Positions 7,723-54,367 of a stretch of 64,000 nucleotides of DNA are shown in pieces. Origin of the DNA: a virus (lineage: Duplodnaviria; Heunggongvirae; Uroviricota; Caudoviricetes); the IMG/VR virus record IMGVR_UViG_3300001533_000890, positions 449 through 64,448 of that record; one strand, given 5' to 3'. The notes beneath the pieces are model-generated. The model searched no databases. It was not told where the DNA came from and saw only the letters and a list, made by a program, of their open reading frames with translations. The translations under genes were made by a program, and so were the position numbers. The first letter of the stretch is position 1, and each line of letters opens with the position of its first letter.

Positions 7723-9390
7723 ATGATTGAACTAGCAGATGCGTTTCGGGAGGCAGTTGCAGAAGGAATTAGGAGTCGAACATTGACTTCTTGTTCTCGT
7801 TGGTCAACCCACCGGCGGGTCATGGGGGAGCCCTTTCCAGGTGCATACAGCTATGAGCGCCATCCGTGGTGCCAGGGGATTGCAGATTCGGAAGCAGTTT
7901 ATAATACTGCTATGAAAGCCGCCCAAATGGGTGTTACCGAAGTAGCCATCAACCGAGCTTTTTACACAATTGATGTCCTGCGGAAAGATGTTTTGTACGT
8001 GCTGCCAACTTTGAATAATGCGAGCGACTTTGCTAAAGCGCGGTTCAATACGGCGTTACAGCTAAGTCCGTACCTCAAAGGTTTGTTTACTGACACCAAT
8101 ACAATTGGTCTTAAGCAGGCTGGCGGTGTAAACTTGTATATTAGGGGTTCACGCGGCGACTCCAACCTCAAGTCCATACCAGTTTCTACTTTGATCCTTG
8201 ACGAAGTAAATGAAATGGACCAAAAGCAAATCTGGTTGGCACTTGAACGACTATCAGGACATGTACGTAAGGCAGTTTGGGCGATTTCAACACCAACTAT
8301 TCCCAAGTATGGCGTTCATAAGTTGTTTCAACAGGGTACGCAAGAACATTATATGTTCAAGTGTCCTAAGTGTGGTCGATGGACAGAACTTATTTGGCCT
8401 GATTGTGTCGAGATTTGTGGCGAGGGCGTCTCTGATCCGCGTTGTAAAGAGTCATTCCTTAAATGTAAAGAGTGTAAGAACAGGCTCGATCACGAGACTA
8501 AACACGAGTGGCTTACAGTTGATAATTGTCAATGGGAATCAACGGAAAAGGGTTCAACAGAACATCGGAGTTTTTTGATAAATCAACTCTACAGCTACAC
8601 GGTGTCGCCACCTGAAATTGTTACTGCACATTTCCGGGGGCTGGGTGACGAGGCTGCTATGGTTGAATTTCATAACTCCAAACTTGGGATACCCTATATC
8701 CCTGCGGGCGGTCTGGTTACCGACACAGAAATTGAGGAGGCTGTTGCAAATCATACAAAAAATGATCCACGGCCAAAAGTAGGCGGTGAACGTTGTATTT
8801 GTATGGGGGTCGACCAAGGAAAGTTCAACTACGTCGTAGTTGCGGAATTTTTATTCGATCAGTATAGCTCAGATCTGAACGTGGCCGCATTTGAACGAAT
8901 TCTTTGGGAAGGTAAGTTACCGGGAGATTGTTTTGAAGACCTCGACCTTCTAATGCGGGAGTGGCAGGTGTTGGGGTGTGTTATTGATGCTGACCCCCAG
9001 ATAAATGATGCGAGACGGTTTGCCAGGAGATTTCCTGGGTACGTACATCTATGCCGCTACAGACGGGGTGTGACGGGGCGTGAGGTACAAGTATCAGAAG
9101 AAGATGGTGGAGCCCCGGTAGCAACAGTAGACCGAACAAACTGGATGGACGCAACTTTAGGCCGCTATCACAATAGTCGCGTGGCTTTGCCCCGGGATAT
9201 TAGCTTTGAGTTTCGCGAGCATCTAAAGAACGTAGTGCGAACATACGAAAAGGACGACCAAAATAACCCCCGAGCTGTCTATGTAAATACGGGCGCAGAT
9301 CACTTTGTACACGCCCAAACTTACACGGAAATTGCGTTGCCGCTTGCGGCACGAATTGTTACCGGCCGGGATATTGGAACTTTCTTATAA
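7723..9390 (+). CDS. terL: terminase large subunit (GpA-like ATPase/nuclease with internal Cys4 zinc ribbon)
   Basis: 555 aa, immediately upstream of the portal. Walker-B-like LILDEVNEMD. Zinc ribbon CPKCGRW...CKECKN. Confidence 0.55.
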   Translation: MIELADAFREAVAEGIRSRTLTSCSRWSTHRRVMGEPFPGAYSYERHPWCQGIADSEAVYNTAMKAAQMGVTEVAINRAFYTIDVLRKDVLYVLPTLNNASDFAKARFNTALQLSPYLKGLFTDTNTIGLKQAGGVNLYIRGSRGDSNLKSIPVSTLILDEVNEMDQKQIWLALERLSGHVRKAVWAISTPTIPKYGVHKLFQQGTQEHYMFKCPKCGRWTELIWPDCVEICGEGVSDPRCKESFLKCKECKNRLDHETKHEWLTVDNCQWESTEKGSTEHRSFLINQLYSYTVSPPEIVTAHFRGLGDEAAMVEFHNSKLGIPYIPAGGLVTDTEIEEAVANHTKNDPRPKVGGERCICMGVDQGKFNYVVVAEFLFDQYSSDLNVAAFERILWEGKLPGDCFEDLDLLMREWQVLGCVIDADPQINDARRFARRFPGYVHLCRYRRGVTGREVQVSEEDGGAPVATVDRTNWMDATLGRYHNSRVALPRDISFEFREHLKNVVRTYEKDDQNNPRAVYVNTGADHFVHAQTYTEIALPLAARIVTGRDIGTFL

Positions 9391-34559: not shown

Positions 34560-37500
34560 TTAGGTTGCCTTTAGGTTAATACAGCGGCCTTGGATACCGT
34601 AAGCAGGGGTATTTTCAGGCACCGTGATGTCCGTAAAACTCAAGTTACCGATGTATGTTCGGCCATGGTTAGACAAGCCAATGGGGTACTGCTCTGGCAT
34701 TGATTGTCGTAGGCGACGTTTGCTCCAATTTGCCTGCTCGAAAGCTGTTAGCGTTTCAAAGAACTTTTCGCTAAACTCTTTAAGAGTCACTTTCTCCCCG
34801 GGAACATAGTAACAATTCTCGGCCAGGAATTCTTCAAGAGGGTCCCGGTTTGCATCGGCGGCTTGGGCCTTACCTTCGGTGTCAATAATTGGCAGTCGAA
34901 GTCGGGAACCAGAAGATGGAAGTGAGAGGTCCATTAGCGTTGCCATGAAATGCGGCGCTTCTTCTTCAAGGGACCGCATCAATGCAGGCTTGGGGATTTC
35001 CTGAATCAAAGGGCTTACATACGTTGCTGTAATTCGCGTATCCCCTGGAAAGATTGGACAGTTATCCCTGCTGTTGGCAGTCTGGACAAAGTGTAAGCAG
35101 TTGCGCTGCTGGTAGACCTGCTGAAACTTCGCATGGATGCTAATGAACTGGGAGGTGGTCCATTCTTTGATCTTATTGTACACGCTAGCGCCGGCATGCG
35201 CAATATTGACTTCATCGACAACGCCGAGAACCGCGTTTGCAAGCTCCCCGTTAAAGTCGCCCGGGCTAGTAAGAGCCCGGTCTGCTTTGACAACGCCGCC
35301 CGTCACCAGCAAACTAATGGCTTCGTGAAAGATTGATTTGCCCGAGTTCTGCGGACCATACATAAACAGGTATGGAAGTGGTTCAAACGGCTCCCGCAGG
35401 AGGCATGAAATCCACGCGGTAAGATAATCTTTTCCGTTGAAAATGCCCCAGTCGCGGCACCACGAAGCATTCTGGACTCCGGGGGTTATATGCTCACCGC
35501 AGTGGGTAAGAATCATATCCCAGTGGGGGTGACGCGGCACTTCATCAGACTCAAGCTGGGCGGGCTGATGGACAAGTTGGGGTGCTCCGAGGTTCCATTG
35601 TCTACCCCCTGGGTATTCAGGGTGGAAAGGCTTGCAGACAAGTAACCACTGGTTAATAATAGCACGACCGAGAATCTGCGTCATAGCCAGCCCGGGCGGG
35701 GCCACAAGTGACAAGACACTGGCGACATTTTCTCGTGGGTGCTTAATCCACCCACCCTTTTTAACATTGACGCGCCAGCCCGCATCTGCCGCGCCCGGGG
35801 TGCGGCAAGAACGAACCAACGTATCATAGCGTGTGGCGTCATCTTCTTCGGAGTTTGTCTCTACGACAATGTTGAAGATTTTTACCCACTTGTTCTTCTT
35901 GCTCCCATTCCAGCCATCGAAACCGGTGTCGTTATCTCGTCGCGCCAGCTCAACGACCAAACGGCCGTCGGTGTTTTTTCGCAATCTTACAGCGCGGTCA
36001 GTGTACGTGTTGCCTTCCGGAAGAATGAGCTTTGAACCCAATGCTTCTACCGCAGCCTGTGCTTGGTCAGTTGACTTGAAGTGAAAACCCTTGCTGTTCT
36101 CAAGCTCAGCTCCATTAAAGGCCATGGCGGCACTTTGCAGGTCGGGGCGTTTATTGTATGCAATATGGGTCCAACCTTGACGGTCTTGCTGCCACAAGTC
36201 ATGCTCAACAGTTCCCTGCCCGAAACGAAATGCTAACCATGCTCCATCTGACTTCGGGATGAGAAAACAATTACCTGTCAGAATAAAATCTTCCAAGCAG
36301 AAACAACCCGTACCCGGCACAGTGCAGCAAAATACTTCTTCAACACCCGCTGGTTGAACGCTAACAACTCGCCAAAGTGATTGAGTTTTTCGGTTGCTTT
36401 TAGCTGCCTTAAATCGGTTTCGGTGTTTCTTAAGAAGGAAGAAGTCCTCTTTCAAAGAGGCTCGTTTTATAGTAGTCGTAAATACAGGGGTTTCAGGATT
36501 ATAGCCACTTGTATGGTGCCGCCACGTGACTTGGGTTGTTTCAATGCCTAGAATATGCGCAACATTCCGAAAATGTTCAATTGCTTCCTTATTTGTTGAC
36601 CGAATAACACAGACTCCTTCCTTGGAGACACAGCCATCGGCGGCGAAGTAACCAGCCAACCAGCCATACAGGTATGGCTTGTCGTAACTAAGGGGTACCA
36701 ATGACTTAAAATGATAAGGTAAATTAGTTACGCACACCCCGCCAATAGAATTAGTGATGGGTTGTTGAGGGTGCTCGGCAAAGAACTTCAACAACTCGGC
36801 GTCCTTTTTCCCGAATAAAGGAAGCTCTGATGTTCTGCGGTCTCCTCCATTCGACCCGTCACCCCACACCAGGCCATGTTGAATTCCGACCACACTGGGA
36901 CGGATCTTACCCCGTCGGGCAGGGGTTTGAACAAGTATATCATTAGGCTGCAAAGCCGTAGTAACCTTCTCTACTCTTTGGCCAAAATTCACTTTTGTTT
37001 TACGGTATCCCCACTTTTGGCGGCACACAAACCATCGGTGGTCACCAGTAGCTCGGAAAGTCTTAGTATGCCCGCGCCTATTTTTCAGCGTGATGGCGTA
37101 AGTCTTCTGTGGTCCGTATGACTTAAATGGGGCCTTCGTCCAAGCGCCTCGGCTTGTAACCACTTCGACTACTTTGCCAGCTAGCTCTGAGATAGGTTTA
37201 ACGCCTTCACGGGTGATGACCGGTGTGTCACCCGCAAGACAATTGGGTTGTCCAAGATCGTTGCCAGGCGACAATGTTTCAAAGAAACCCCGCATAGGTT
37301 GGCCGTGAGTTTTCCACTGGTCGTGGACCATCTTCAAGGCCCGGGTGTGCGTTTGCAGAAGGTGGTGATCTGGAATCCAAACGCAACTGGCACCAGTCAG
37401 CTCAAGGTCTGATATGATACGGCGATGGGTCTCGTCAAGGGGTACCTTTGGGTGGGCAGTGGTTAGCTCTGAAAGAGGGTCTTGTGCGTCAACTTCTTCC

Positions 37501-38279
37501 CCTGTATCTGTTACTCCAACAACGCGGACTTTGGTGGCCTTGCCCAAAATGACTTGTACTTGGTCCCTCCAATTGGGGGAAATATCGTCGCGACCCAGGT
37601 GTTCTGTTGCCGCCTTTAGCTGCATGAAGCCGGGCGTGCCAAACATTTTCTGGTGAGCCACCCACATGCAACCGCCGCACACGTCTAGGTGACTGCCAAA
37701 ATCAAACTCAGCATCGGTACTTAGCTTTCCTAAGATGACCCTAGCAATTGCTGCGTGTTCAGTATGGTTCGCTGTACGGGGCCTAGAAGCCTCGTCAAAC
37801 CACACGTAAAGATGAAGGCCCTTACCACCGGTAGACTTGATTACATCGACGTAGGGAAGCTCACAGGCAGCCCTACACACCTTCTCAAGCTGTTCCGGGG
37901 TGACCCCAGTGCCCGGGGCGTGGCTGGTAATTTCATCGAAGTCAAATCCAACAGCCACGGACTCTCTGGCAGTCCAGTTCCACCAAGTTGTGCCGACGCC
38001 CAACCAATGGCGTTCCAAGAGAAATGGTAACTCTCGATCTTTCCAGAATGGTTCGGCCATTGCGTTTTTGGGCCATCGAATATTGAACCACGTTTCGTTA
38101 CCATCTGTCCAGGTATTTCGTTTACCTTCAACCCGCGTGCCGTTACCCGGCGCAACTAAAAGCTGTGTCTCAAGGTGTCGCAGGTTGTCGAGCCATTGCT
38201 TAAAAAATGGAGGGTTGCTGTGCTTTGGCAGGACGTGATTGGTAAAGTATGTCTCAAAAGCATTAAGAATTGTTGCCAT
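34560..38279 (-). CDS. bifunctional AEP primase-polymerase / D5-like SF3 helicase, interrupted by an intein
   Basis: AEP motifs VGFDFDEITSH and STGGKGLHLYVWF. Walker A LFMYGPQNSGKS near the C-terminus. Intein boundaries QPN|CLAGDT and ILTGN|CF. Confidence 0.75.
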   Translation of the reverse strand: MATILNAFETYFTNHVLPKHSNPPFFKQWLDNLRHLETQLLVAPGNGTRVEGKRNTWTDGNETWFNIRWPKNAMAEPFWKDRELPFLLERHWLGVGTTWWNWTARESVAVGFDFDEITSHAPGTGVTPEQLEKVCRAACELPYVDVIKSTGGKGLHLYVWFDEASRPRTANHTEHAAIARVILGKLSTDAEFDFGSHLDVCGGCMWVAHQKMFGTPGFMQLKAATEHLGRDDISPNWRDQVQVILGKATKVRVVGVTDTGEEVDAQDPLSELTTAHPKVPLDETHRRIISDLELTGASCVWIPDHHLLQTHTRALKMVHDQWKTHGQPMRGFFETLSPGNDLGQPNCLAGDTPVITREGVKPISELAGKVVEVVTSRGAWTKAPFKSYGPQKTYAITLKNRRGHTKTFRATGDHRWFVCRQKWGYRKTKVNFGQRVEKVTTALQPNDILVQTPARRGKIRPSVVGIQHGLVWGDGSNGGDRRTSELPLFGKKDAELLKFFAEHPQQPITNSIGGVCVTNLPYHFKSLVPLSYDKPYLYGWLAGYFAADGCVSKEGVCVIRSTNKEAIEHFRNVAHILGIETTQVTWRHHTSGYNPETPVFTTTIKRASLKEDFFLLKKHRNRFKAAKSNRKTQSLWRVVSVQPAGVEEVFCCTVPGTGCFCLEDFILTGNCFLIPKSDGAWLAFRFGQGTVEHDLWQQDRQGWTHIAYNKRPDLQSAAMAFNGAELENSKGFHFKSTDQAQAAVEALGSKLILPEGNTYTDRAVRLRKNTDGRLVVELARRDNDTGFDGWNGSKKNKWVKIFNIVVETNSEEDDATRYDTLVRSCRTPGAADAGWRVNVKKGGWIKHPRENVASVLSLVAPPGLAMTQILGRAIINQWLLVCKPFHPEYPGGRQWNLGAPQLVHQPAQLESDEVPRHPHWDMILTHCGEHITPGVQNASWCRDWGIFNGKDYLTAWISCLLREPFEPLPYLFMYGPQNSGKSIFHEAISLLVTGGVVKADRALTSPGDFNGELANAVLGVVDEVNIAHAGASVYNKIKEWTTSQFISIHAKFQQVYQQRNCLHFVQTANSRDNCPIFPGDTRITATYVSPLIQEIPKPALMRSLEEEAPHFMATLMDLSLPSSGSRLRLPIIDTEGKAQAADANRDPLEEFLAENCYYVPGEKVTLKEFSEKFFETLTAFEQANWSKRRLRQSMPEQYPIGLSNHGRTYIGNLSFTDITVPENTPAYGIQGRCINLKAT
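36270..37241 (-). mobile_element. intein (324 aa) with LAGLIDADG homing endonuclease in the primase-helicase
   Basis: Begins CLAGDTPV. Contains LAGYFAADGCV (LAGLIDADG-type block). Ends with Asn followed by a +1 Cys (TGN|C). Confidence 0.75.
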
Positions 38280-41987: not shown

Positions 41988-42178
41988 TGTTTTACATCAC
42001 CGTATTGGCCGGGCGTCGTCCCGCTGTTGTGACCGACGGTCGTGGTCGTGCCAGAAGTTTTCCGAAAGCCAAGAAAGCTTACAATTTTGTCGAAGGCAGA
42101 CCCTATCTACGGGCAATGAAACCACGCGTAGTGGAAAGTCTTAACTCGCAACTAGCTACTTTCAAGGTTGACCTATGA
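41987..42178 (+). CDS. hypothetical small protein
   Basis: 63-aa ORF, ATGA-coupled to the methyltransferase gene. Confidence 0.25.
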   Translation: MFYITVLAGRRPAVVTDGRGRARSFPKAKKAYNFVEGRPYLRAMKPRVVESLNSQLATFKVDL

Positions 42179-42954
42179 ACCAGCCGCCATCGACTCTCGA
42201 TATTTTCCAAGGCGACAACCTCAAAATCTTGTCTCGTTTCGACCGACCATGTTTTGATTTGATTTACATGGATCCGCCTTTTAATACGGGCCGTACTCAA
42301 AAGGCTGCCGAGGGTACGTATGCCGATACTTTTGAGGACTACTCAGCGTTTCTTGAACCACGTCTTAAAGCGGCCTTTGAGCTACTTGATGCGGCGGGGA
42401 CTTTGTGTGTTCATTTGGACTACCGGGAAGTCCACTACGTAAAAGTCTTGCTGGACCGGCTTGTTGGCCGCGAGTGTTTTCTTAACGAAATTATCTGGGC
42501 GTATGACTTTGGTGGTCGGGCAAAGAAGCGCTGGTCTGCCAAACACGACACTCTTTTACTCTATGTAAAGGACGCGAAGGAGTATACATTTCGCTTTGAT
42601 GACATGGAACGCATCCCCTACATGGCCCCCGGGCTGGCGGGTCCGGAAAAAGCTGCGAGGGGGAAAACTCCGACCGACGTGTGGTGGCACACAGTTGTCC
42701 ACACCCGGGGGAAAGAACGTTGCGGCTACCCCACTCAGAAACCAGTCGGCTTGCTTAATCGATTGATAACAGTCCACACACATCCCGGCGACCTTGTGTT
42801 GGATTGTTTTGCCGGGTCTGGCACAACCGGCGAAGCAGCTCTTAAAAACGGACGCAGCGCCGTACTCATTGACTCAAATCCGGACGCGATTAAAGTAATG
42901 ATGCGCCGTCTTGAAGAATATTCTCCTCGCCTCCACCCGGAATCCCATGCCTGA
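42175..42954 (+). CDS. DNA methyltransferase, beta-class (N6-adenine or N4-cytosine)
   Basis: Motif IV LIYMDPPFNTGR occurs before motif I CFAGSGTTGEAALKNGRSAVLIDSNPDA. Confidence 0.7.
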   Translation: MNQPPSTLDIFQGDNLKILSRFDRPCFDLIYMDPPFNTGRTQKAAEGTYADTFEDYSAFLEPRLKAAFELLDAAGTLCVHLDYREVHYVKVLLDRLVGRECFLNEIIWAYDFGGRAKKRWSAKHDTLLLYVKDAKEYTFRFDDMERIPYMAPGLAGPEKAARGKTPTDVWWHTVVHTRGKERCGYPTQKPVGLLNRLITVHTHPGDLVLDCFAGSGTTGEAALKNGRSAVLIDSNPDAIKVMMRRLEEYSPRLHPESHA

Positions 42955-45724
42955 ACTTCAAACACTTAAACTGATAACTGAAACGGCTTCTGGCACACTT
43001 GTTAAGCAGCCCGTCACTATTCGTGTTGTAAGAAACCGGATTGAATTTGTCAAGTCTCCCTTTGGTTTGAAGGATGAGATTAAGGCAATGAAGGGTTCAA
43101 AGTGGCATGGTTTTGAAGACCCGCCACGAAAGATTTGGAGTGTAGCAGACTGCGACCGCAACCGTTTTCAACTCGCCTACATGGCGGGTGAAAATCCTTA
43201 TGAATGGTGGGACCGCCCTCTTATCGAGCATGAGTATGAGCGGCCACTGCGTGAACACCAGAAGTTGATGGCAAACTTCGGCCTTACGTACCATTTTGGT
43301 ATCTTTGCGGCCGAGATGGGATGTATTGCCGGGGATGCAACCGTCCATGTGAATCGCGCGGGCAAGAGTTTTTCAATAACTCTTGCAGAGCTATGTTACA
43401 AGTTTCATGGCGGGGCCACTTACAACGGACCTACAACGCTAAATCGCCCTTCTAAACGAGTCTGGGATACATCTATCGACACCTTTGTACGGGGGTTTCG
43501 GGGCGAAGCGTTTGGTCTAACAAAGATCATTGATGTAGTTTTCCAGGGCCACAAGAAAGTTAAGTTGTTGAGGACTAAATCCGGCAAAGTGCTGCGGCTT
43601 ACTCCTGACCACGAGCTGTGCATCAATGCTTACCGGTATGGCACATTCAAACCTCTCAATGAATTGATGCCCGGGGATTATATCATGGTGGCCGCTCCTG
43701 ATGGATTTGCCCGGCAGTCGCGGGCCGTGCCGCAAACGCCTCCTAGCCGGTTGACAAAAACAACGCAACAAGGTCTGGGGCATTTTATTGACAACGACGG
43801 GTATGTTCGTGTTGGAGGTTTGAAAGGCCACCCCCGCGCCAACCGATCGAATCAGGTGTATGAACACATTCTCGTAGTAGAGGAACTGTTAGGTCGACGG
43901 GTCACAGTAAAAGAGCAGATTCACCATTTGAATCAGCAGCGGTGGGATAATCGGCCGGAGAACTTGGTGGTCTGCACAGCAAGAGAGCATGCAGACTTTC
44001 ATAGTGGTAATAAGGTTCACTTACACAATGGTACTAACTCATCTGCGTTCTGTTTTTGTTTTGACCCAATCGCGTCAATCGAGGATGGTGGCACCGTTGA
44101 TGTATACGACATAAAGTGTGAGGGGCCCTACCACAACTTCATCGCTAATGGTATTGTAGTACACAATTGCGGCAAGACCCTTAGTGCTATAGAGGTTATG
44201 GAACAGTCGGGCTACAATGATTGGATTTGGGTTGGCCCCAAGGCGGGCCTCCGCGCGGTTGAACGTGAGTTTCATAAGTGGGGACTTACTGATGTAAACC
44301 TCGATCTATTTACGTATGAAGCTCTGACCTCTAAGATGAAGAATTGGACACCAGGCGACCTTCCCCCTCACGGTGTCATCTTTGACGAGTCAAGCAGACT
44401 TAAGAATCACCATAGCCAACGGGCCCAGGCCGCGCAGGCATTAGCTGACGGCATCCGGGCCGAGTATGGTCGCGATGGGTTCGTTATTCTAATGACCGGC
44501 ACTCCATCCCCTAAGTCTCCTGTAGATTGGTGGTCCCAGGCTGAGATTGCGTGCCCTGGTTTTCTGCGCGAAGGTGACATGAGGGCTTTTGAACGAAGGC
44601 TGGGCATCTTTGTAGAGAAAGAAACATCTCAAGGCAAGCACCTTCAACGTGTAACATGGTTGGATACAGAAGAAAAGTGTGCTATTTGCGGTGGCCTTGA
44701 GGATGAAGAACAGCATCAATTTGAATACGCCGAGGATTACCACCGATGGAAACCAAGCGTCAATGAAGTTGCGTTACTGCACGAACGCCTGGACGGATTG
44801 GCCCTTGTAATGCACAAGAAGGATTGGCTCGACCTTCCCGAGAAACAATACCGAGTTGTGCAGTGTGAAGTTACACCCACTATTGACCGCGTAGCCAAGG
44901 CTCTGGTTAAACTGGCGCCTAATGCCATGACAGGTTTGACGTGGTTGCGGGAGCTAAGCGATGGATTTCAATATAGAGAAGAGGTTCAGGGGACGGAGCC
45001 CTGCCCCGCATGCGCGAACACAGATACCCCGGGTAAGTTGCCAGTTTGGGTTGATCCAGATGATCCTGACCGAACTTTTGAAATGGTAGACATGCTGGAC
45101 CCTGAGTATGTTTCGACCTTATCAAAAGAACTGCAAACCTGCAAAACATGCGATGGTACATTAGAAGTGCCTCATAAGGTGCGAGTTATTCGAGAGGTTC
45201 CGACGCCTAAAGAGAAGGCCACAATTGAACTGCTAGAAGAGAACGAAGAAACCGGACGCTTGGTTATTTTTGCAGGGTTCACCGGCTCTCTTGATCGGCT
45301 GGGAAAGCTATGCCAAAAGCAGCGCTGGGCAGTGATCCGGGTGGATGGCCGTGGGTGGAAAGTTTGGGATAGCGCTGGCAACCCAATAGTCGTTGAAAAT
45401 CCACTGGATTATTGGGCCGACTTAGAACACAACCCTCGTGTTGTTTTTGTCGCACACCCAAAGTCAGGCGGTATGAGTTTAACTCTCACCGAAGCGTCTA
45501 TGGCGGTATTCTACTCCAATGATTTCTCACCAGAGTCGAGATCCCAGGCGGAAGATCGAATTCATAGAATTGGTGTGGATGAGAACAAAGGTGCCACTAT
45601 TGTTGACCTTATCCATTTACCTACTGATGAGCATGTACGTAGTATTCTCCGTGAGAATCGCAGGCTTGAATTAATGACTCTTGGCGATATTGCCGCAACC
45701 GTTGGCGTGGAGACTGATGAATGA
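42946..45724 (+). CDS. SNF2-family helicase/ATPase with an intein inserted in the Walker A P-loop
   Basis: The exteins AAEMG|...|CGKTLSA rejoin as GCGKT. DExH box VIFDESSRLKNHH. C-terminal helicase domain with a Zn-ribbon. Confidence 0.7.
43322..44167 (+). mobile_element. intein (282 aa) with HNH homing endonuclease, inserted in the helicase P-loop
   Basis: Starts CIAGDATV, ends IVVHN with a +1 Cys. HNH motif EQIHHLNQQRWDNRPENLVVCTAREHADFH. Confidence 0.75.
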
Positions 45725-46218
45725 AGACCCTTATTATGACGGTGGGTTTACCTCGATCAGGTAAAAGTACATGGGCAAGAACGCAGCGACACCCAATAGT
45801 TAATGGGGACTCGATTCGATTGGCATTACATGGGCAGCCCTATGTTTTGGAGGCTGAGCCAATGGTTTCATGTGTTAAGCACCTGATGGTAAAGGCTTTA
45901 CTCCTTGCGGGCCATGACACGGTTATTCTCGACGGTACACACACAACGCAGGCTAACCGTGATAGATGGCTTTCACCTGATTGGGACCGGGTATTTATCA
46001 CGTTTGGGGGCCCCGAGATGTTGGACGTATGCTTAGAGCGTGCCTTGAAAACTTGTATCGGCCGCAAGCATGTTGAAGACCTTACAATGTCTATTCGACG
46101 CATGGCCCGGGGGTACGAACGCCCTACATCTTTTGAGAAGACAGTGGGTATTTATACCCACTCCGAACACCCGGTACAGGGAGAACTTACACCTTTTCCG
46201 GAGATTAGAAATGCCTGA
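45721..46218 (+). CDS. P-loop kinase, polynucleotide-kinase-like
   Basis: Walker A GLPRSGKST, VILDGTH, RDRW. 165 aa, small Pnk or AAA_33-like. Confidence 0.5.
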   Translation: MKTLIMTVGLPRSGKSTWARTQRHPIVNGDSIRLALHGQPYVLEAEPMVSCVKHLMVKALLLAGHDTVILDGTHTTQANRDRWLSPDWDRVFITFGGPEMLDVCLERALKTCIGRKHVEDLTMSIRRMARGYERPTSFEKTVGIYTHSEHPVQGELTPFPEIRNA

Positions 46219-48050: not shown

Positions 48051-49655
48051 ATGGCAAACTATGCGAGTCACCTTGTTACGGCAACCCAGCGGGAACCCTT
48101 GTTTGATCGTAAACAGATTAAGAACGATGCTGGAGGTTACGTTTTTAAGGTTGAGCCCTTTCAGGTTCTCCAACGGTTTCTCATTCTAGGCTGTGACGGC
48201 GGAACTTATTACACGGGCGAGGCGCAGATGACTCGCCGCATGGCGAAAGTTTTACAAGAATGCGCCCGACGGTCTGTTGAGTCAACTATCACCACCATAC
48301 TTCAAGCGCTGCCCCGCGCAATTAAGCCAACCCCTGCGGTTTTTTGTCTTGCTTACTTGTCTAGTGGTAAGTGCGGCCCGCAGGCGGCGCGGGCGGCTTT
48401 GGCCGAAGTTAACACGGTTTGTCGCACCGCTTCGCATCTCTTTACGTTCGTGGAGCAAACAACGAAATTCCGGGGCTGGGGACGCGGCCTGCGGAAAGCC
48501 GTGGCGGGCTGGTATACGGCTAAGGACCCACAGTCTTTGATGTATCAGGTTACGAAGTATGGTCAACGAGAGGGCTACACGCATCGTGACCTCCTTCGTT
48601 TGGCACATCCTTACTCCCCTGAGTTGAATGAAGTTTTTCGGTACATTTGCAGCGGAGAGTACACCAAGAATGACACCCTTGGTTCATGGCTATCCGTGAT
48701 TAATAGTCTGTCCGAAGCCACAAGTGCCAAGTCTGTTGCGAAGCATATCCGGGCTTGGCGATTGGTTCGCGAAGTTATTCCAACCAAGTGGCTCAATTCT
48801 TCCTTGGTGTGGGAGGCGCTGCTTGATAGGATGCCATATACAGCCTTGGTTCGCAACCTTGGGAAGATGACCGCTGTTGGGCTACTAACGCCTTTTAGCG
48901 ATGCTTCTAAACTGGTTTGTGAGCGGCTGCGGTCGGCGGGGCAGGCTCTTCATCCTGCTGCATTGTTGCTGGCAAGCACCACCTATCAAAAAGGTCAAGG
49001 CGTCAGGGGCAACTTGTCTTGGAACCCTGACCAGAATATTTGTGAGGCACTTGAGGACGCATTTTACGGCGCTTTCGACACTGTGACACCCGCTGGCAAG
49101 AACTTTATGCTGGCAATCGACGTTTCTGGCTCCATGGGCTGGCGCGGTTTTGACTTCCTGGGTTCTATTGCTGGCACACACCTTAAAGCTTACCAAGCCG
49201 CCGCTGTTATGGCGCTGGCACAGACGCGGTCCGAGCCATGGTGCCTTACGACGGCATTTACTGGCCGGCAGGGTAACAGACGCGCCGGTGGTCTTAAGCT
49301 CGTGGAAAATTTCGGCCGACACTGCCGTTTACAGCCCGCTTTGGATGAGCTTAGGCGAATTCCGGTTGGTCCAACAGACTGCGCACTTCCAATGATTTAC
49401 GCCCGGGAAAATAAATTACCGGTTGACACTTTTGTTGTCTACACTGATAACGAAAGCTGGCAGGGTAAAACGCACCCTTGTCGAGCCCTCGAAGATTATC
49501 GGCAAGCCACGGGTCGCGATGCCAAATTGGTTGTTTGTGCATTGACTGCTACTGAGTATTCGGTAGCTGACCCGGATGATCCCGGAATGCTTGATGTTGT
49601 AGGTTTTGACCCCACTTGCCCATCCGTTATCTCTCGTTTTGCAGGAGAACTTTAA
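48051..49655 (+). CDS. rsr: Ro60/Rsr-like ribonucleoprotein (TROVE domain with C-terminal vWA/MIDAS)
   Basis: 534 aa, the typical Ro60 size. vWA MIDAS motif FMLAIDVSGSMGW near residue 360. An adjacent tRNA-like ncRNA is characteristic of Rsr and Y RNA loci. Confidence 0.65.
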   Translation: MANYASHLVTATQREPLFDRKQIKNDAGGYVFKVEPFQVLQRFLILGCDGGTYYTGEAQMTRRMAKVLQECARRSVESTITTILQALPRAIKPTPAVFCLAYLSSGKCGPQAARAALAEVNTVCRTASHLFTFVEQTTKFRGWGRGLRKAVAGWYTAKDPQSLMYQVTKYGQREGYTHRDLLRLAHPYSPELNEVFRYICSGEYTKNDTLGSWLSVINSLSEATSAKSVAKHIRAWRLVREVIPTKWLNSSLVWEALLDRMPYTALVRNLGKMTAVGLLTPFSDASKLVCERLRSAGQALHPAALLLASTTYQKGQGVRGNLSWNPDQNICEALEDAFYGAFDTVTPAGKNFMLAIDVSGSMGWRGFDFLGSIAGTHLKAYQAAAVMALAQTRSEPWCLTTAFTGRQGNRRAGGLKLVENFGRHCRLQPALDELRRIPVGPTDCALPMIYARENKLPVDTFVVYTDNESWQGKTHPCRALEDYRQATGRDAKLVVCALTATEYSVADPDDPGMLDVVGFDPTCPSVISRFAGEL

Positions 49656-49852: not shown

Positions 49853-50451
49853 TTTGGTTTATAAGTGACACACACTTTGGGCATGCACGTTTGATGGAGT
49901 CGCCCGAGCGCGCCGGGCGGTTCCCATCTCTTGCTGACCTGGACGCGGCAATTATTGACGGTATTAATCAATACGTCGGCCGCAATGACGTCCTTTATCA
50001 CCTTGGCGACTTTTGTTGGGGTGCCCGTTTGATAGGGCACTATCGGCAGCGCCTTAAAGTACGGACCCTGCACGTTATCCGTGGGAACCACGACCCGGCC
50101 AGTCTTGGGAGGCATTGCTCTACAATGCGTGATATGGCCGTGGTGAAGTTTCGACAGCCGGGGTGGTCGCACTCGATTAAATTTCACCTGTGTCATTTTC
50201 CCATCGTTAATTGGGCGTCGATGCACCGTGGCGGCGGGCATTTGTACGGCCACTGTCACGGCCGGTCGGAAGCTGACTTGAACCGCATCCACCCGGGTCG
50301 TCGCGCCCTCGATGTTAGCGCGGACAATCTTTATCGGTTGTTTGGTAGCTATCGACCAATCAGTTTGGATGATCTAATTGAACGGTGGGACTTGGCAGAA
50401 ACCCGTGATTATTTCCCCGGCCCGTTTGAACACAATAAGGATACACAATGA
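49849..50451 (+). CDS. calcineurin-like metallophosphoesterase (candidate RNA 2',3'-cyclic-phosphate or 3'-phosphate end-healing enzyme)
   Basis: Motifs ISDTHFGH, LGDFCWG, IRGNHD and GHCHGR. Confidence 0.6.
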   Translation: MIWFISDTHFGHARLMESPERAGRFPSLADLDAAIIDGINQYVGRNDVLYHLGDFCWGARLIGHYRQRLKVRTLHVIRGNHDPASLGRHCSTMRDMAVVKFRQPGWSHSIKFHLCHFPIVNWASMHRGGGHLYGHCHGRSEADLNRIHPGRRALDVSADNLYRLFGSYRPISLDDLIERWDLAETRDYFPGPFEHNKDTQ

Positions 50452-51524
50452 GTAATACCCCTGTTGAAATCACCCCTGTCTTAGCTGTTGAACAGCACCC
50501 CAACGCGGACCGTTTGGAATTGGTGCGCGTTATTACCACGCAGTTCATCTCCCAAAAAGGTATTTACCAACAGGGTGATCTTTGTGTCTATTTCCCGCCA
50601 GATGTTATGATTCCTGAAACATTGGCGGAAGAGCTAGGTGTTGCTGCCTACTTAAAGCACTCAATCTACCCCGGCGATTCGTTCAAATCAAAGTGTCGCG
50701 TTGGTGCCATCCGACTTCGTAGCATTGCATCATTTGGTTTCGGACTACCCGTGGATAAAGTGTCCGCGGCGCGGCCGGGTTGTTATGACGATGGAGCAGA
50801 CGTGTCCGAGCTTGTCGGGGCCGTTAAATATCAACCTCCCGAACTAGAAACAATGCGTGGCTCCGACACGGTACGGTCTCCCGAGGCGTTTCACAAGTAC
50901 ACCAGTATCGAACACTATTACCGTAATGCCATCGCGCTGCCAGAAGGCACGCCCGTCCGCGTGACCGAGAAGCTACACGGAACGAACTCCCGAGTCGGCC
51001 TAATCTACGACAACGGTTGGGAGTTCATGTGTGGCACCCACCACCGACGGGTCAAGTCGGAGAATGCTCGCGGACGGAAGTCCATCTACTGGAAGCCCTT
51101 AACTGACGGGATGAAAGCTCTCTTATCGCACCTGTCACAAGAGACAAACAATGTTATTGTCTTTGGCGAGATTTTCGGGCGCAAGGTCCAGCCAATGGAC
51201 TACGGGGCTGGACCGGCCGAGGGTTATCGAGTTTTTGACATTTCAGTAAACGGGGACTACCTGGATTGGCACAGTATTTGCACCTTTTGTAGGAAGTTCG
51301 GCATCCCAGTCGTGCCGCTACTACACTCCGGACCATTTTATACGGGCCTGGTCGATGAATTTGTAAGCGGGCCAACATCTGTTGCCCACTCCGAGAATAT
51401 TGCGTGCAAATTCAAAGGACGAGAGGGGATTGTGATAACCCCCTTGACTGAAACTTATAGTCCCGAACTTTGTGGCCGTTTGATTCTGAAAGCCGTCAGT
51501 CCTGATTACTATGAGGCTATGTAA
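50448..51524 (+). CDS. ATP-dependent RNA ligase (Rnl2-like KxHGxN nucleotidyltransferase) with an N-terminal Trbp111/EMAP-like tRNA-binding OB domain
   Basis: The N-terminus AVEQHPNADRLELVRV...GDLCVYFPPDV resembles the tRNA-binding domain of MetRS C-terminus/Trbp111. Ligase motif I VTEKLHGTNSRVG. Confidence 0.6.
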   Translation: MSNTPVEITPVLAVEQHPNADRLELVRVITTQFISQKGIYQQGDLCVYFPPDVMIPETLAEELGVAAYLKHSIYPGDSFKSKCRVGAIRLRSIASFGFGLPVDKVSAARPGCYDDGADVSELVGAVKYQPPELETMRGSDTVRSPEAFHKYTSIEHYYRNAIALPEGTPVRVTEKLHGTNSRVGLIYDNGWEFMCGTHHRRVKSENARGRKSIYWKPLTDGMKALLSHLSQETNNVIVFGEIFGRKVQPMDYGAGPAEGYRVFDISVNGDYLDWHSICTFCRKFGIPVVPLLHSGPFYTGLVDEFVSGPTSVAHSENIACKFKGREGIVITPLTETYSPELCGRLILKAVSPDYYEAM

Positions 51525-54294: not shown

Positions 54295-54367
54295 TGCGCG
54301 GTAGCTCAATTGGTAGAGCGTCCGACTGTTAATCGGATGGTTGCAGGTTCGAGCCCTGCCCGCGCAG
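54295..54367 (+). tRNA. tRNA-Asn (anticodon GTT)
   Basis: Cloverleaf: acceptor TGCGCGG/CCGCGCA, D-arm GCTCaattggtaGAGC, anticodon arm TCCGAcTGTTAaTCGGA, T-arm GCAGGttcgagcCCTGC. 73 nt, no encoded CCA. Confidence 0.85.

Follow-up and report, generated by a model that had tools for sequence, protein, structure and literature searches.

An interrupted helicase gene

The window, by which we mean the whole 64,000-nucleotide stretch of viral DNA that was analysed, encodes an SNF2-family helicase whose Walker A motif is split by an insert that is very probably a canonical class 1 intein with an I-HmuI-like HNH_3 homing endonuclease. The mechanical open reading frame (42911-45724) opens at a TTG at 42911; the likely start is instead the ATG at 42947, which overlaps the stop codon of a DNA methyltransferase gene. 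The resulting product is 100% identical to a database protein, P0001. A second, unrelated intein, about 6 kb from the first, lies in a primase gene on the other strand (Table 1).

Table 1. Genes, intein parts and key codons at the two intein-bearing loci of the window.
Feature	Position	Strand	Description
Primase/DUF5906 gene	34560-38279	-	hosts LAGLIDADG intein at residues 347-670
Second intein	36270-37241	-	324 aa, LAGLIDADG type; CLAGDTPV...FILTGN/C, penultimate Gly
DNA methyltransferase gene	42175-42954		upstream of helicase gene
Helicase precursor gene	42947-45724	+	925 aa and stop; SNF2-family SF2 ATPase, intein-interrupted
N-extein	42947-43321	+	125 aa, ends ...HFGIFAAEMG; first half of SF2 motif I (Walker A)
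Class 1 intein	43322-44167	+	282 aa; HINT splicing domain with inserted HNH_3 endonuclease module
Cys1 codon	43322-43324	+	TGT
Splicing block A	43322-43345	+	C1-IAGDATV; Cys1 is the N-terminal nucleophile
Splicing block B	43598-43618	+	L-T94-P-D-H97-E-L (TxxH motif)
HNH_3 endonuclease module	43796-44017	+	approximately residues 159-232; I-HmuI-like
Splicing blocks F and G	44096-44167	+	VDVYDIKCEGPYHNFIANG-IVVH281-N282; TIGR01443 above cut-off
Asn282 codon	44165-44167	+	AAT
Cys+1 codon	44168-44170	+	TGC; first C-extein residue
C-extein	44168-45721	+	518 aa, opens C+1-GKTLSAIE; second half of Walker A

The original prediction had placed an HNH-endonuclease intein in the P-loop of an SNF2-family helicase, with boundaries that prove exact: the codons for Cys1, Asn282 and Cys+1 lie where it put them, and the junction strings it quoted, FAAEMG/CIAGDATV ... 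IVVHN/CGKTLSAI (a slash marks the insertion or splice point throughout), are all found in the sequence together with its HNH stretch. The insert separates the first Gly of the Walker A G-X-G-K-T from the X, and its removal in silico rejoins FAAEMG/CGKT, with the junction DNA ...GCCGAGATGGGA/TGCGGCAAGACC....

That the host is an SNF2-family helicase is also borne out. The precursor matches the DNA helicase family phrog_62 (E=8e-50), and SNF2-type ATPases account for 60 of the 60 PDB sequence matches listed. The in-silico spliced protein passes the Pfam cut-off of 24.9 bits for SNF2-rel_dom (PF00176) with 31.5 bits, whereas the unspliced precursor fails it at 18.1 bits; Helicase_C (PF00271) scores 25.6 bits on the spliced protein against a cut-off of 23.5. 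The end of the N-extein aligns with 'GILADEMG' of ISW1, and across the junction AAEMGCGKT is aligned with ADEMGLGKT. The C-extein supplies motif II (VIFDESSRLKN, with DESSRLKN aligned to DEAHRIKN of ISW1), motif III (LMTGTP, with MTGTP aligned to ITGTP) and the Helicase_C lobe.

The insert spans 846 nt, which is 282 codons in the reading frame of the helicase, and bears the marks of a class 1 intein. It matches Intein_splicing (PF14890) with E=2.2e-14 and 54.0 bits (cut-off 35.8), intein_Cterm (TIGR01443; 26.7 bits against 15.6) and HNH_3 (PF13392; E=1.9e-10, 40.6 bits against 24.8), the Intein_splicing and HNH_3 matches being far beyond chance. The catalytic residues C1, T94, H97, D263, H281, N282 and C+1 are all there: the HINT domain opens on Cys1, carries TxxH in block B and closes on His-Asn before the +1 Cys. 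Across the 15 inteins at this site, the invariant residues are C1, G4, A6 and V8 in block A, T94, D96 and H97 in block B, and V261, D263, P269, N272, F273, V280 and N282 in blocks F and G. We considered class 3, whose members lack a nucleophile at position 1 and are defined instead by a triplet of Trp in block B, Cys at block F4 and Thr at block G5 (PMC5050341, PMC2807308). We rejected it because the defining triplet is absent: the insert starts with Cys, its block B (TPDHELC) has no Trp, and G5 is Val, not Thr.

Within the HNH_3 module lie DGYVRVGG and YEHILVVEELLGR, as well as the core IHHLN..WDNRPENL..REHADFH (43919-44002); intein residues 200-227 make up the HNH stretch, HHLNQQRWDNRPENLVVCTAREHADFH. 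HNH families in PHROG match with E-values down to 3.6e-17. Residues H200, H201, D209, N210, N214, H223 and H227 are kept in every HNH-bearing relative, and the catalytic positions are conserved in 11 of 11 HNH-bearing helicases, the window's own included. A confident AlphaFold2 model of the intein (pLDDT 87.7, pTM 0.86; residues 35-44 of low confidence) confirms the domain matches: the HNH core is modelled as a strand (198-202), a second strand (215-219) and a helix (220-228), the beta-beta-alpha metal finger. Each of the top 46 Foldseek matches of the model in the PDB is to the HINT domain of an intein or of Hedgehog, and the best non-HINT match is I-HmuI (1u3e). No solved structure of an HNH-containing intein was among these PDB matches.

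Intein-free alleles, insertion sites and spread

No intein is present in 102 of the 118 full-length homologues; these are up to 77% identical to the window's helicase, and they answer the question raised with the original prediction, whether related helicases have a contiguous P-loop. Their context is mostly EMG[TVLC]GK[TS], and the X position is T, V, L, C or S. The closest at the DNA level, L001 (77% identical), reads AAEMG/VGKT, and its GCTGAAATGGGC/GTTGGTAAAACT runs without a break precisely where the insert lies in the window; its junction DNA, CTGGCTGCTGAAATGGGCGTTGGTAAAACTCTGTCA, is contiguous, with flanks ...GCTGCTGAAATGGGC/GTTGGTAAAACTCTG.... A further claim, that a different intein class interrupts another replication gene within 8 kb, also holds: the primase intein matches LAGLIDADG_3 in Pfam (30.7 bits) and, weakly, Intein_splicing. 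It too is precisely absent from the L001 orthologue (GKPN/CFMIPK) and is present in L002.

The insert might in principle be no intein at all, and represent an assembly chimera, a free-standing HNH gene, an HNH ORF housed in a group I intron, or a HINT-like (BIL) insertion that does not splice and would remain part of the mature helicase. We found nothing positive for any of these, beyond the fact that the nuclease module alone is closest to free-standing HNH_3 genes. The intron, free-standing gene and chimera readings were rejected because the frame runs continuous and stop-free over both junctions, metagenome assemblies made independently show the same architecture (P0002/L002 and eleven others), and the ends of the insert fall, to the residue, at the gap in intein-free orthologues. 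At 0.49, the GC content of the insert is also the same as in the flanking sequence. The class 1 junction residues, which are typically missing from BIL domains, are all present in the insert, including the terminal His-Asn and the +1 Cys. We therefore give this whole group of explanations a vanishingly small probability.

The helicase family has three insertion sites. An intein at G/XGKT is carried by 13 homologues, P0001 included, and the site holds class 1 HNH inteins or mini-inteins; the two mini-inteins, those of P0019 and P0095, have the HNH module cleanly deleted. At GK/T, four relatives (P0057, P0059, P0105 and P0115) have a class-3-like LAGLIDADG intein with the motifs GGLP.., DHLWNV, ECICI and VTHN/T. 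The third site, WWSQ/[CA]EVAWPGF, holds a class 1 LAGLIDADG intein. Together with the orphan intein-only genes L003, P0121 and P0122, the family contains every stage of a homing cycle, from the empty site through the full intein and the mini-intein to the orphan.

Searches outside the family returned little. Those run with the intein alone, or with an intein profile, returned mainly free-standing HNH_3 proteins and, unexpectedly, did not return the intein-bearing helicases themselves; they therefore give no census of other host proteins. P0123 and P0140 alone hint at other hosts, P0123 having a different N-extein with the same AEMG/C junction. Megablast of the helicase gene against 50,697 deposited phage genomes gave no match, and tblastn gave only two distant matches to the C-lobe (32-44% identity), so that this collection offers no cultured relative or annotated precedent. 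A scan of GTDB genome contigs with the precursor yielded 15 pattern matches, of which none was confirmed.

The presence of the intein is sporadic, the nearest neighbours of intein-bearing helicases being intein-free at 77-91% identity. Moreover, in a distance-matrix analysis the pairwise identities of inteins and exteins were uncorrelated (Spearman -0.12, p=0.31); P0036 and P0038, for example, show 77% identity in their exteins and only 33% in their inteins. Sporadic presence, together with intein similarity that does not track extein similarity, points to horizontal movement of the inteins within the family.

The window and L002 present another picture at closer range. Their inteins are of identical length and 77% identical without gaps, and their exteins are 82-83% identical; divergence is thus comparable, which indicates vertical inheritance in that lineage, and recent homing is not demonstrated. 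Between these two copies pN is 0.145 against a pS of 0.83 for the whole intein, and 0.155 against 0.82 for the HNH core; since synonymous sites are saturated (pS > 0.75) between the two available intein copies, this is not a proper dN/dS, and it can only be stated that pN lies far below pS. On this comparison of sequences the intein is under purifying selection.

These data bear on whether the intein still splices but has ceased to home, being a vertically inherited, fixed passenger late in the homing cycle whose HNH module is dead or kept for some other reason. Vertical descent from the common ancestor with L002 would suit such a passenger, as would the loss of the HNH module in the two mini-inteins and the drift of the penultimate residue among relatives (H, S, K, E or A), which shows relaxed constraint on parts of the element. 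However, the HNH catalytic positions are kept in the window and in all the other HNH-bearing helicases, the low pN of the HNH core argues for continued selection on the nuclease, and the family-wide incongruence of intein and extein trees argues for repeated transfer. We consequently consider an inactive passenger unlikely, and favor an intein that retains a functional homing endonuclease.

Proposed splicing and homing

We suggest that translation would yield a 925-aa precursor with a broken ATP-binding loop, presumably inactive as an ATPase, from which the intein would excise itself by the class 1 pathway. An N-S acyl shift at Cys1, helped by Thr94 and His97 of block B, would be followed by attack of Cys+1 on the thioester to give a branched intermediate; cyclisation of Asn282, aided by His281, and a final S-N shift would then restore the peptide bond. 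This would leave a helicase of 643 aa, its P-loop contiguous as AAEMGCGKT, and release the intein-endonuclease as a separate protein of 282 aa. During co-infection, the HNH module is predicted to cut, or else nick, those alleles of the helicase gene that lack the intein. I-HmuI is itself a nicking enzyme. Repair from the intein-bearing copy would then bring in the intein and the adjacent Cys codon. Cys occupies +1 in 13 of 13 intein-bearing homologues versus 4 of 100 intein-free copies, and since it is mostly missing from intein-free alleles, successful homing should need co-conversion of at least one flanking codon. Splicing, the nuclease activity with its target, and the inactivity of the precursor are inferred, whereas the domains, catalytic residues, insertion point, intein-free alleles, purifying selection and pattern of horizontal spread are observed.

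A further possibility is that the intein has been co-opted as a conditional post-translational switch, responsive to metals, to temperature or, by way of Cys1/Cys+1 or other cysteines, to redox state. Helicase ATPase activity would then be confined to a particular stage or condition of infection, and the primase intein might act in parallel. Its position in the ATP-binding loop implies that the unspliced protein should be inactive, and two replication proteins of one module bear inteins. The intein has seven cysteines including C1, with another at +1. Conditional splicing has been reported for mycobacterial DnaB P-loop inteins (PMC6195587, PMC7360933), and it has been argued that P-loop inteins are selectively retained (PMC4760082). 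However, nothing in the sequence establishes regulation, and approximately 86% of homologues, including the closest ones, function without the intein. C1 is the sole invariant Cys within the G/XGKT-site inteins, among which the cysteines besides C1 and C+1 vary, and the inteins are distributed as a selfish mobile element would be. Such a switch therefore appears very unlikely, and the homing intein remains our preferred reading.

Relation to described inteins

P-loop, SNF2/HepA, HNH and phage inteins have all been described before, and the arrangement in the window is well documented; it is an ordinary, well-formed example of a well-known kind of intein and changes no concept. Its main value is as annotation and as a resource. 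Since the 925-aa ORF combines a mobile element with an SNF2 helicase of 643 aa, an automatic pipeline that called it 'hypothetical' or an 'HNH endonuclease' would mislabel it. The helicase family, with its three insertion sites, is a compact natural intein hot spot that could serve the study of P-loop intein invasion or supply new splicing domains, and HNH-type inteins are far less studied than LAGLIDADG ones. A literature search on HNH inteins came back nearly empty.

More speculatively, the G/XGKT HNH intein and the primase LAGLIDADG intein could make phage replication dependent on two splicing events, a conditional gate on replisome ATPases; the orphans L003, P0121 and P0122 may be free-standing HINT-HNH nucleases from the lineage of the helicase intein; and G/XGKT may represent an insertion site or allele of SNF2 inteins that has not been catalogued before. 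We regard this reading as improbable.

The closest parallels are the P-loop inteins of ATPases and helicases, namely DnaB-b, MCM-a, RFC-S-a and TerL1-a/b (Novikova et al. 2016, PMC4760082; Kelley et al. 2016, PMC5050341). Like them, the helicase intein interrupts Walker A in a replication-associated ATPase, here in a phage setting, with a +1 splice nucleophile that is itself a P-loop residue, and the penultimate His is poorly conserved among its relatives, as in phage inteins (PMC5050341). It differs in its site, G/XGKT being two residues upstream of the 'classic' GK/[TS] site, in its host, an SNF2-family SF2 protein and not DnaB, MCM or a terminase, and in its nuclease, which is HNH_3 and not LAGLIDADG.

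By host family, it resembles the 15 bacterial HepA (COG0553) inteins (PMC4760082), the HepA-related 'HEL' inteins of cluster C1 mycobacteriophages (PMC5050341) and the Snf2 intein of Deinococcus radiodurans (Brace et al. 2010, as cited in PMC6195587), all of them in SNF2-type SF2 hosts and some in phages. The D. radiodurans intein, however, is of class 3, with a block F nucleophile, whereas the window's is of class 1 with Cys1; the GK/T inteins of P0057, P0059, P0105 and P0115 may be closer counterparts of the D. radiodurans intein.

By description, it is also similar to the HNH-type inteins first reported by Dalgaard et al. (1997, NAR 25:4626, as referenced in PMC8966425), in which an HNH-family nuclease in place of LAGLIDADG lies in the HINT domain between blocks B and F. 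The window's nuclease is of the phage HNH_3, or I-HmuI, type. I-HmuI (PDB 1u3e) is a free-standing HNH homing endonuclease, encoded in a group I intron of Bacillus phage SPO1 and furnished with extra DNA-binding modules, whereas the HNH core in the window is embedded in an intein.

Identity and host of the insertion

The insertion in the phage helicase gene is very probably a class 1 HNH intein that splits the Walker A loop of an SNF2-family ATPase, in line with the original prediction. Its junctions, ...HFGIFAAEMG/CIAGDATV...NGIVVHN/CGKTLSAIE... (slashes mark insertion points throughout), occur in the window exactly as first quoted. The expected Hint and HNH domains were both found, with matches above Pfam curated cut-offs to Intein_splicing (54.0 bits, E=2e-14, cut-off 35.8) and HNH_3 (40.6 bits, E=2e-10, cut-off 24.8). 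The insert also scored above threshold with the NCBIfam intein C-terminal model, and 12 PHROG families matched it, 11 of them annotated as HNH endonuclease (best E 4e-17). The full set of class 1 catalytic positions is present: block A has Cys1, block B (LTPDHEL) has Thr94 and His97, block F reads VDVYDIKCEGPYHNF, block G reads IVV-His281-Asn282, and the +1 residue is Cys. A class 3 intein was ruled out by the Cys at position 1 and the missing Trp/Cys/Thr triplet.

An AlphaFold2 model, built from an alignment of 15 inteins that all come from the G/XGKT site, was confident (mean pLDDT 87.7, pTM 0.86) and poor only in loop 35-44. All 46 Foldseek matches of this model in the PDB at E≤1e-3 were intein or Hedgehog HINT domains. 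The modeled nuclease module contains strands 198-202 (QIHHL) and 215-219 (NLVVC) and helix 220-228 (TAREHADFH), and the HNH residues are predicted to be borne on a beta-beta-alpha metal finger. At 0.49, the GC content of the insert matches its surroundings (0.48 and 0.50 in the two flanks, 0.50 in the window).

The helicase ORF probably starts at ATG 42947, which gives a 925-aa product identical to P0001, a database protein from a 78.7-kb JGI contig; the mechanical ORF start, TTG 42911, is probably not used. With this start the helicase gene overlaps the N6/N4 DNA methyltransferase gene that precedes it by 8 nt, suggesting translational coupling. Splicing in silico yields a 643-aa product that passes the Pfam cut-offs for SNF2-rel_dom (31.5 bits, cut-off 24.9) and Helicase_C (25.6 bits, cut-off 23.5), whereas the unspliced precursor falls below the former at 18.1 bits. 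The 60 PDB sequence matches listed are all SNF2-type ATPases (e.g., ISW1, INO80, SWR1, SSO1653). In the spliced product, motif I at the junction (GIFAAEMGCGKTLSAI), motif II (VIFDESSRLKN) and motif III (LMTGTP) align with GILADEMGLGKTLQTI, IIIDEAHRIKN and LITGTP of ISW1, so the intein directly follows the first Gly of G-X-G-K-T and precedes the variable X. It is reasonable to infer that the precursor would be unable to bind ATP; failure of a precursor to do so is cited for the RadA P-loop intein in PMC6195587.

Three CxxC pairs (EEKCAICGG, EPCPACAN, QTCKTCDG) lie in the C-extein between the two RecA-like lobes. The pairs of this inter-lobe insertion are kept in relatives, which suggests that they are zinc-ribbon elements peculiar to the phage SNF2 subfamily of this helicase.

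Coordinates of the features discussed (window positions unless a locus is named)
Feature	Position	Strand	Details
Large terminase	7723-9390
Primase/DUF5906 gene	34560-38279	-
Second intein	36270-37241	-	324 aa, primase residues 347-670
DNA methyltransferase gene	42175-42954		overlaps helicase at 42947-42954
Longest ORF of region	42911-45724	+	encodes helicase precursor
Helicase intein	43322 (TGT) to 44165-44167 (AAT)	+	282 codons, then TGC
CxxC pairs	about 44900-45350	+	C-extein
Polynucleotide-kinase-like ATPase	45721-46218	+
Ro60/TROVE + vWA protein	48051-49655	+
RNA ligase	50448-51524	+
tRNA-Asn	54295-54367
Orphan intein-only gene P0122	6001-6945 (locus L003)		complete 243-aa HINT+HNH intein

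Distribution and evidence of mobility at the G/XGKT site

A search with the spliced exteins gave 1,917 relatives, of which the best 120 were taken; 118 of these were full length. No intein is present in 102 of the 118 (624-692 aa, identity up to 77%), whose P-loops carry T, V, L, C or S at X, mostly in the context EMG[TVLC]GK[TS]. The contiguous P-loop looked for in related genomes is present in the closest intein-free homologue among the best 120 (P0003), where the DNA of locus L001 reads GCTGCTGAAATGGGC/GTTGGTAAAACT (AAEMG/VGKT) with no gap or added base relative to the window exteins. The next closest intein-bearing relative, P0002 of locus L002, has an intein of equal length, 77% identical in protein to that of the window, with exteins 82-83% identical. 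Non-synonymous differences between the two are far below synonymous ones in every part, including the HNH core (pN 0.155, pS 0.82, with synonymous sites saturated so that the figures do not form a ratio), so purifying selection acts on splicing and nuclease parts alike. Judged from sequence, efficient present-day splicing and an active nuclease are both likely.

An intein lies at exactly G/XGKT in 13 of the 118 helicases, P0001 included, and each bearer has intein-free nearest neighbours (extein identity 77-91%). Pairwise intein and extein identities show no relation (Spearman -0.12, p=0.31): P0036 and P0038 are 77% identical in exteins but 33% in inteins, whereas P0038 and P0094 are 56% identical in exteins and 65% in inteins. 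At least three intein sub-lineages share the site, and those of P0019 (156-aa intein) and P0095 (161-aa intein) are mini-inteins that have lost precisely the HNH module lying between blocks B and F. The +1 residue is Cys in all 13 bearers, whereas the same position in copies without an intein is Thr in 44, Val in 28, Leu in 23, Cys in 4 and Ser in 1, a difference that fits co-conversion of the flanking codon during homing. Sporadic presence, incongruent similarity, mini-inteins and the +1 Cys are evidence that the intein is, or has been, mobile. The nearest sequence relatives of the nuclease module are free-standing HNH_3 proteins of 90-260 aa (40-60% identity over the core).

Four intein-free homologues (P0051, P0078, P0079, P0085) nevertheless carry Cys, the intein +1 residue, at X; a precise loss of the intein may have left this residue behind, or these sites may be pre-adapted for homing. 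The penultimate residue is His in the window intein and Ser, Lys, Glu or Ala in its relatives, a variability like that of phage inteins, in which loss of this His has been described (Kelley et al., PMC5050341).

Other inteins and orphan intein genes

Two intein classes had been predicted to interrupt two replication genes within 8 kb, and the second, about 6 kb away in the primase gene, is indeed of LAGLIDADG type (LAGLIDADG_3, 30.7 bits, cut-off 22.5). It has ends CLAGDTPV...FILTGN/C, with a penultimate Gly instead of His, and is precisely absent from the L001 orthologue (GKPN/CFMIPK) and present in L002.

Four helicase relatives (P0057, P0059, P0105, P0115) have another, distinct intein two residues downstream, at GK/T, about 290-340 aa long. 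It opens with Gly (GGLPSTK...) and contains the Trp of DHLWNV, the Cys of ECICI and the Thr of VTHN/T, which together make the class 3 signature. It also bears LAGLIDADG motifs and recalls the Snf2 intein of D. radiodurans, which has been studied as a class 3 intein (Brace et al. 2010, as cited in PMC6195587). P0052 shows yet another insertion site, the third for this family, at DWWSQ/CEVAWPGF, where a class 1 LAGLIDADG intein (CLAADTW...GLLAHN/C) leaves the P-loop intact.

The orphan gene P0122, on an 817-kb contig, has 11 residues before the intein (..SQMG/C) and an unrelated 60-aa tail after it (HN/CTIIL...). It follows primase, ParB and methyltransferase in the helicase's syntenic position and adjoins a phage integrase; no helicase remnant was found there by tblastn. 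P0121 is similar, with Arg at +1. The orphan resembles the Arth_1007 intein pseudogene (PMC3196547), or may be a domesticated free-standing nuclease.

Precedent and genome context

Each ingredient of the window intein has precedent. SNF2/HepA is within the top 15 bacterial intein hosts, with 15 inteins, and P-loops recur as sites of intein insertion across DnaB, MCM, RFC and many further ATPases (Novikova et al., PMC4760082). Phage inteins are known in a HepA-related helicase, and terminase P-loops have intein sites one residue apart (Kelley et al., PMC5050341). Dalgaard et al. described an intein of the HNH type in 1997 (as cited in PMC8966425). Our structure search of BFVD matched many viral terminases, polymerases and helicases that bear inteins, an SNF2-like helicase among them. 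What is new may be only the specific allele and site: a class 1, HNH_3 intein at G/XGKT in an uncultured phage helicase family.

The window belongs to a tailed phage, with portal, major head, tape-measure and family A DNA polymerase genes besides the terminase, and no close relative was found among deposited phages. Its replication module (primase on the minus strand, ParB, small ORFs, DNA methyltransferase, helicase) is syntenic in L001 and L002. At the Rfam gathering threshold no Y RNA or other family was found except the tRNA-Asn. Just downstream of the helicase lies a possible RNA-repair or RNA-quality-control cluster made up of the polynucleotide-kinase-like ATPase, the Ro60/TROVE plus vWA protein, matched by Pfam at E=5e-52, and the RNA ligase, matched to phrog_968.
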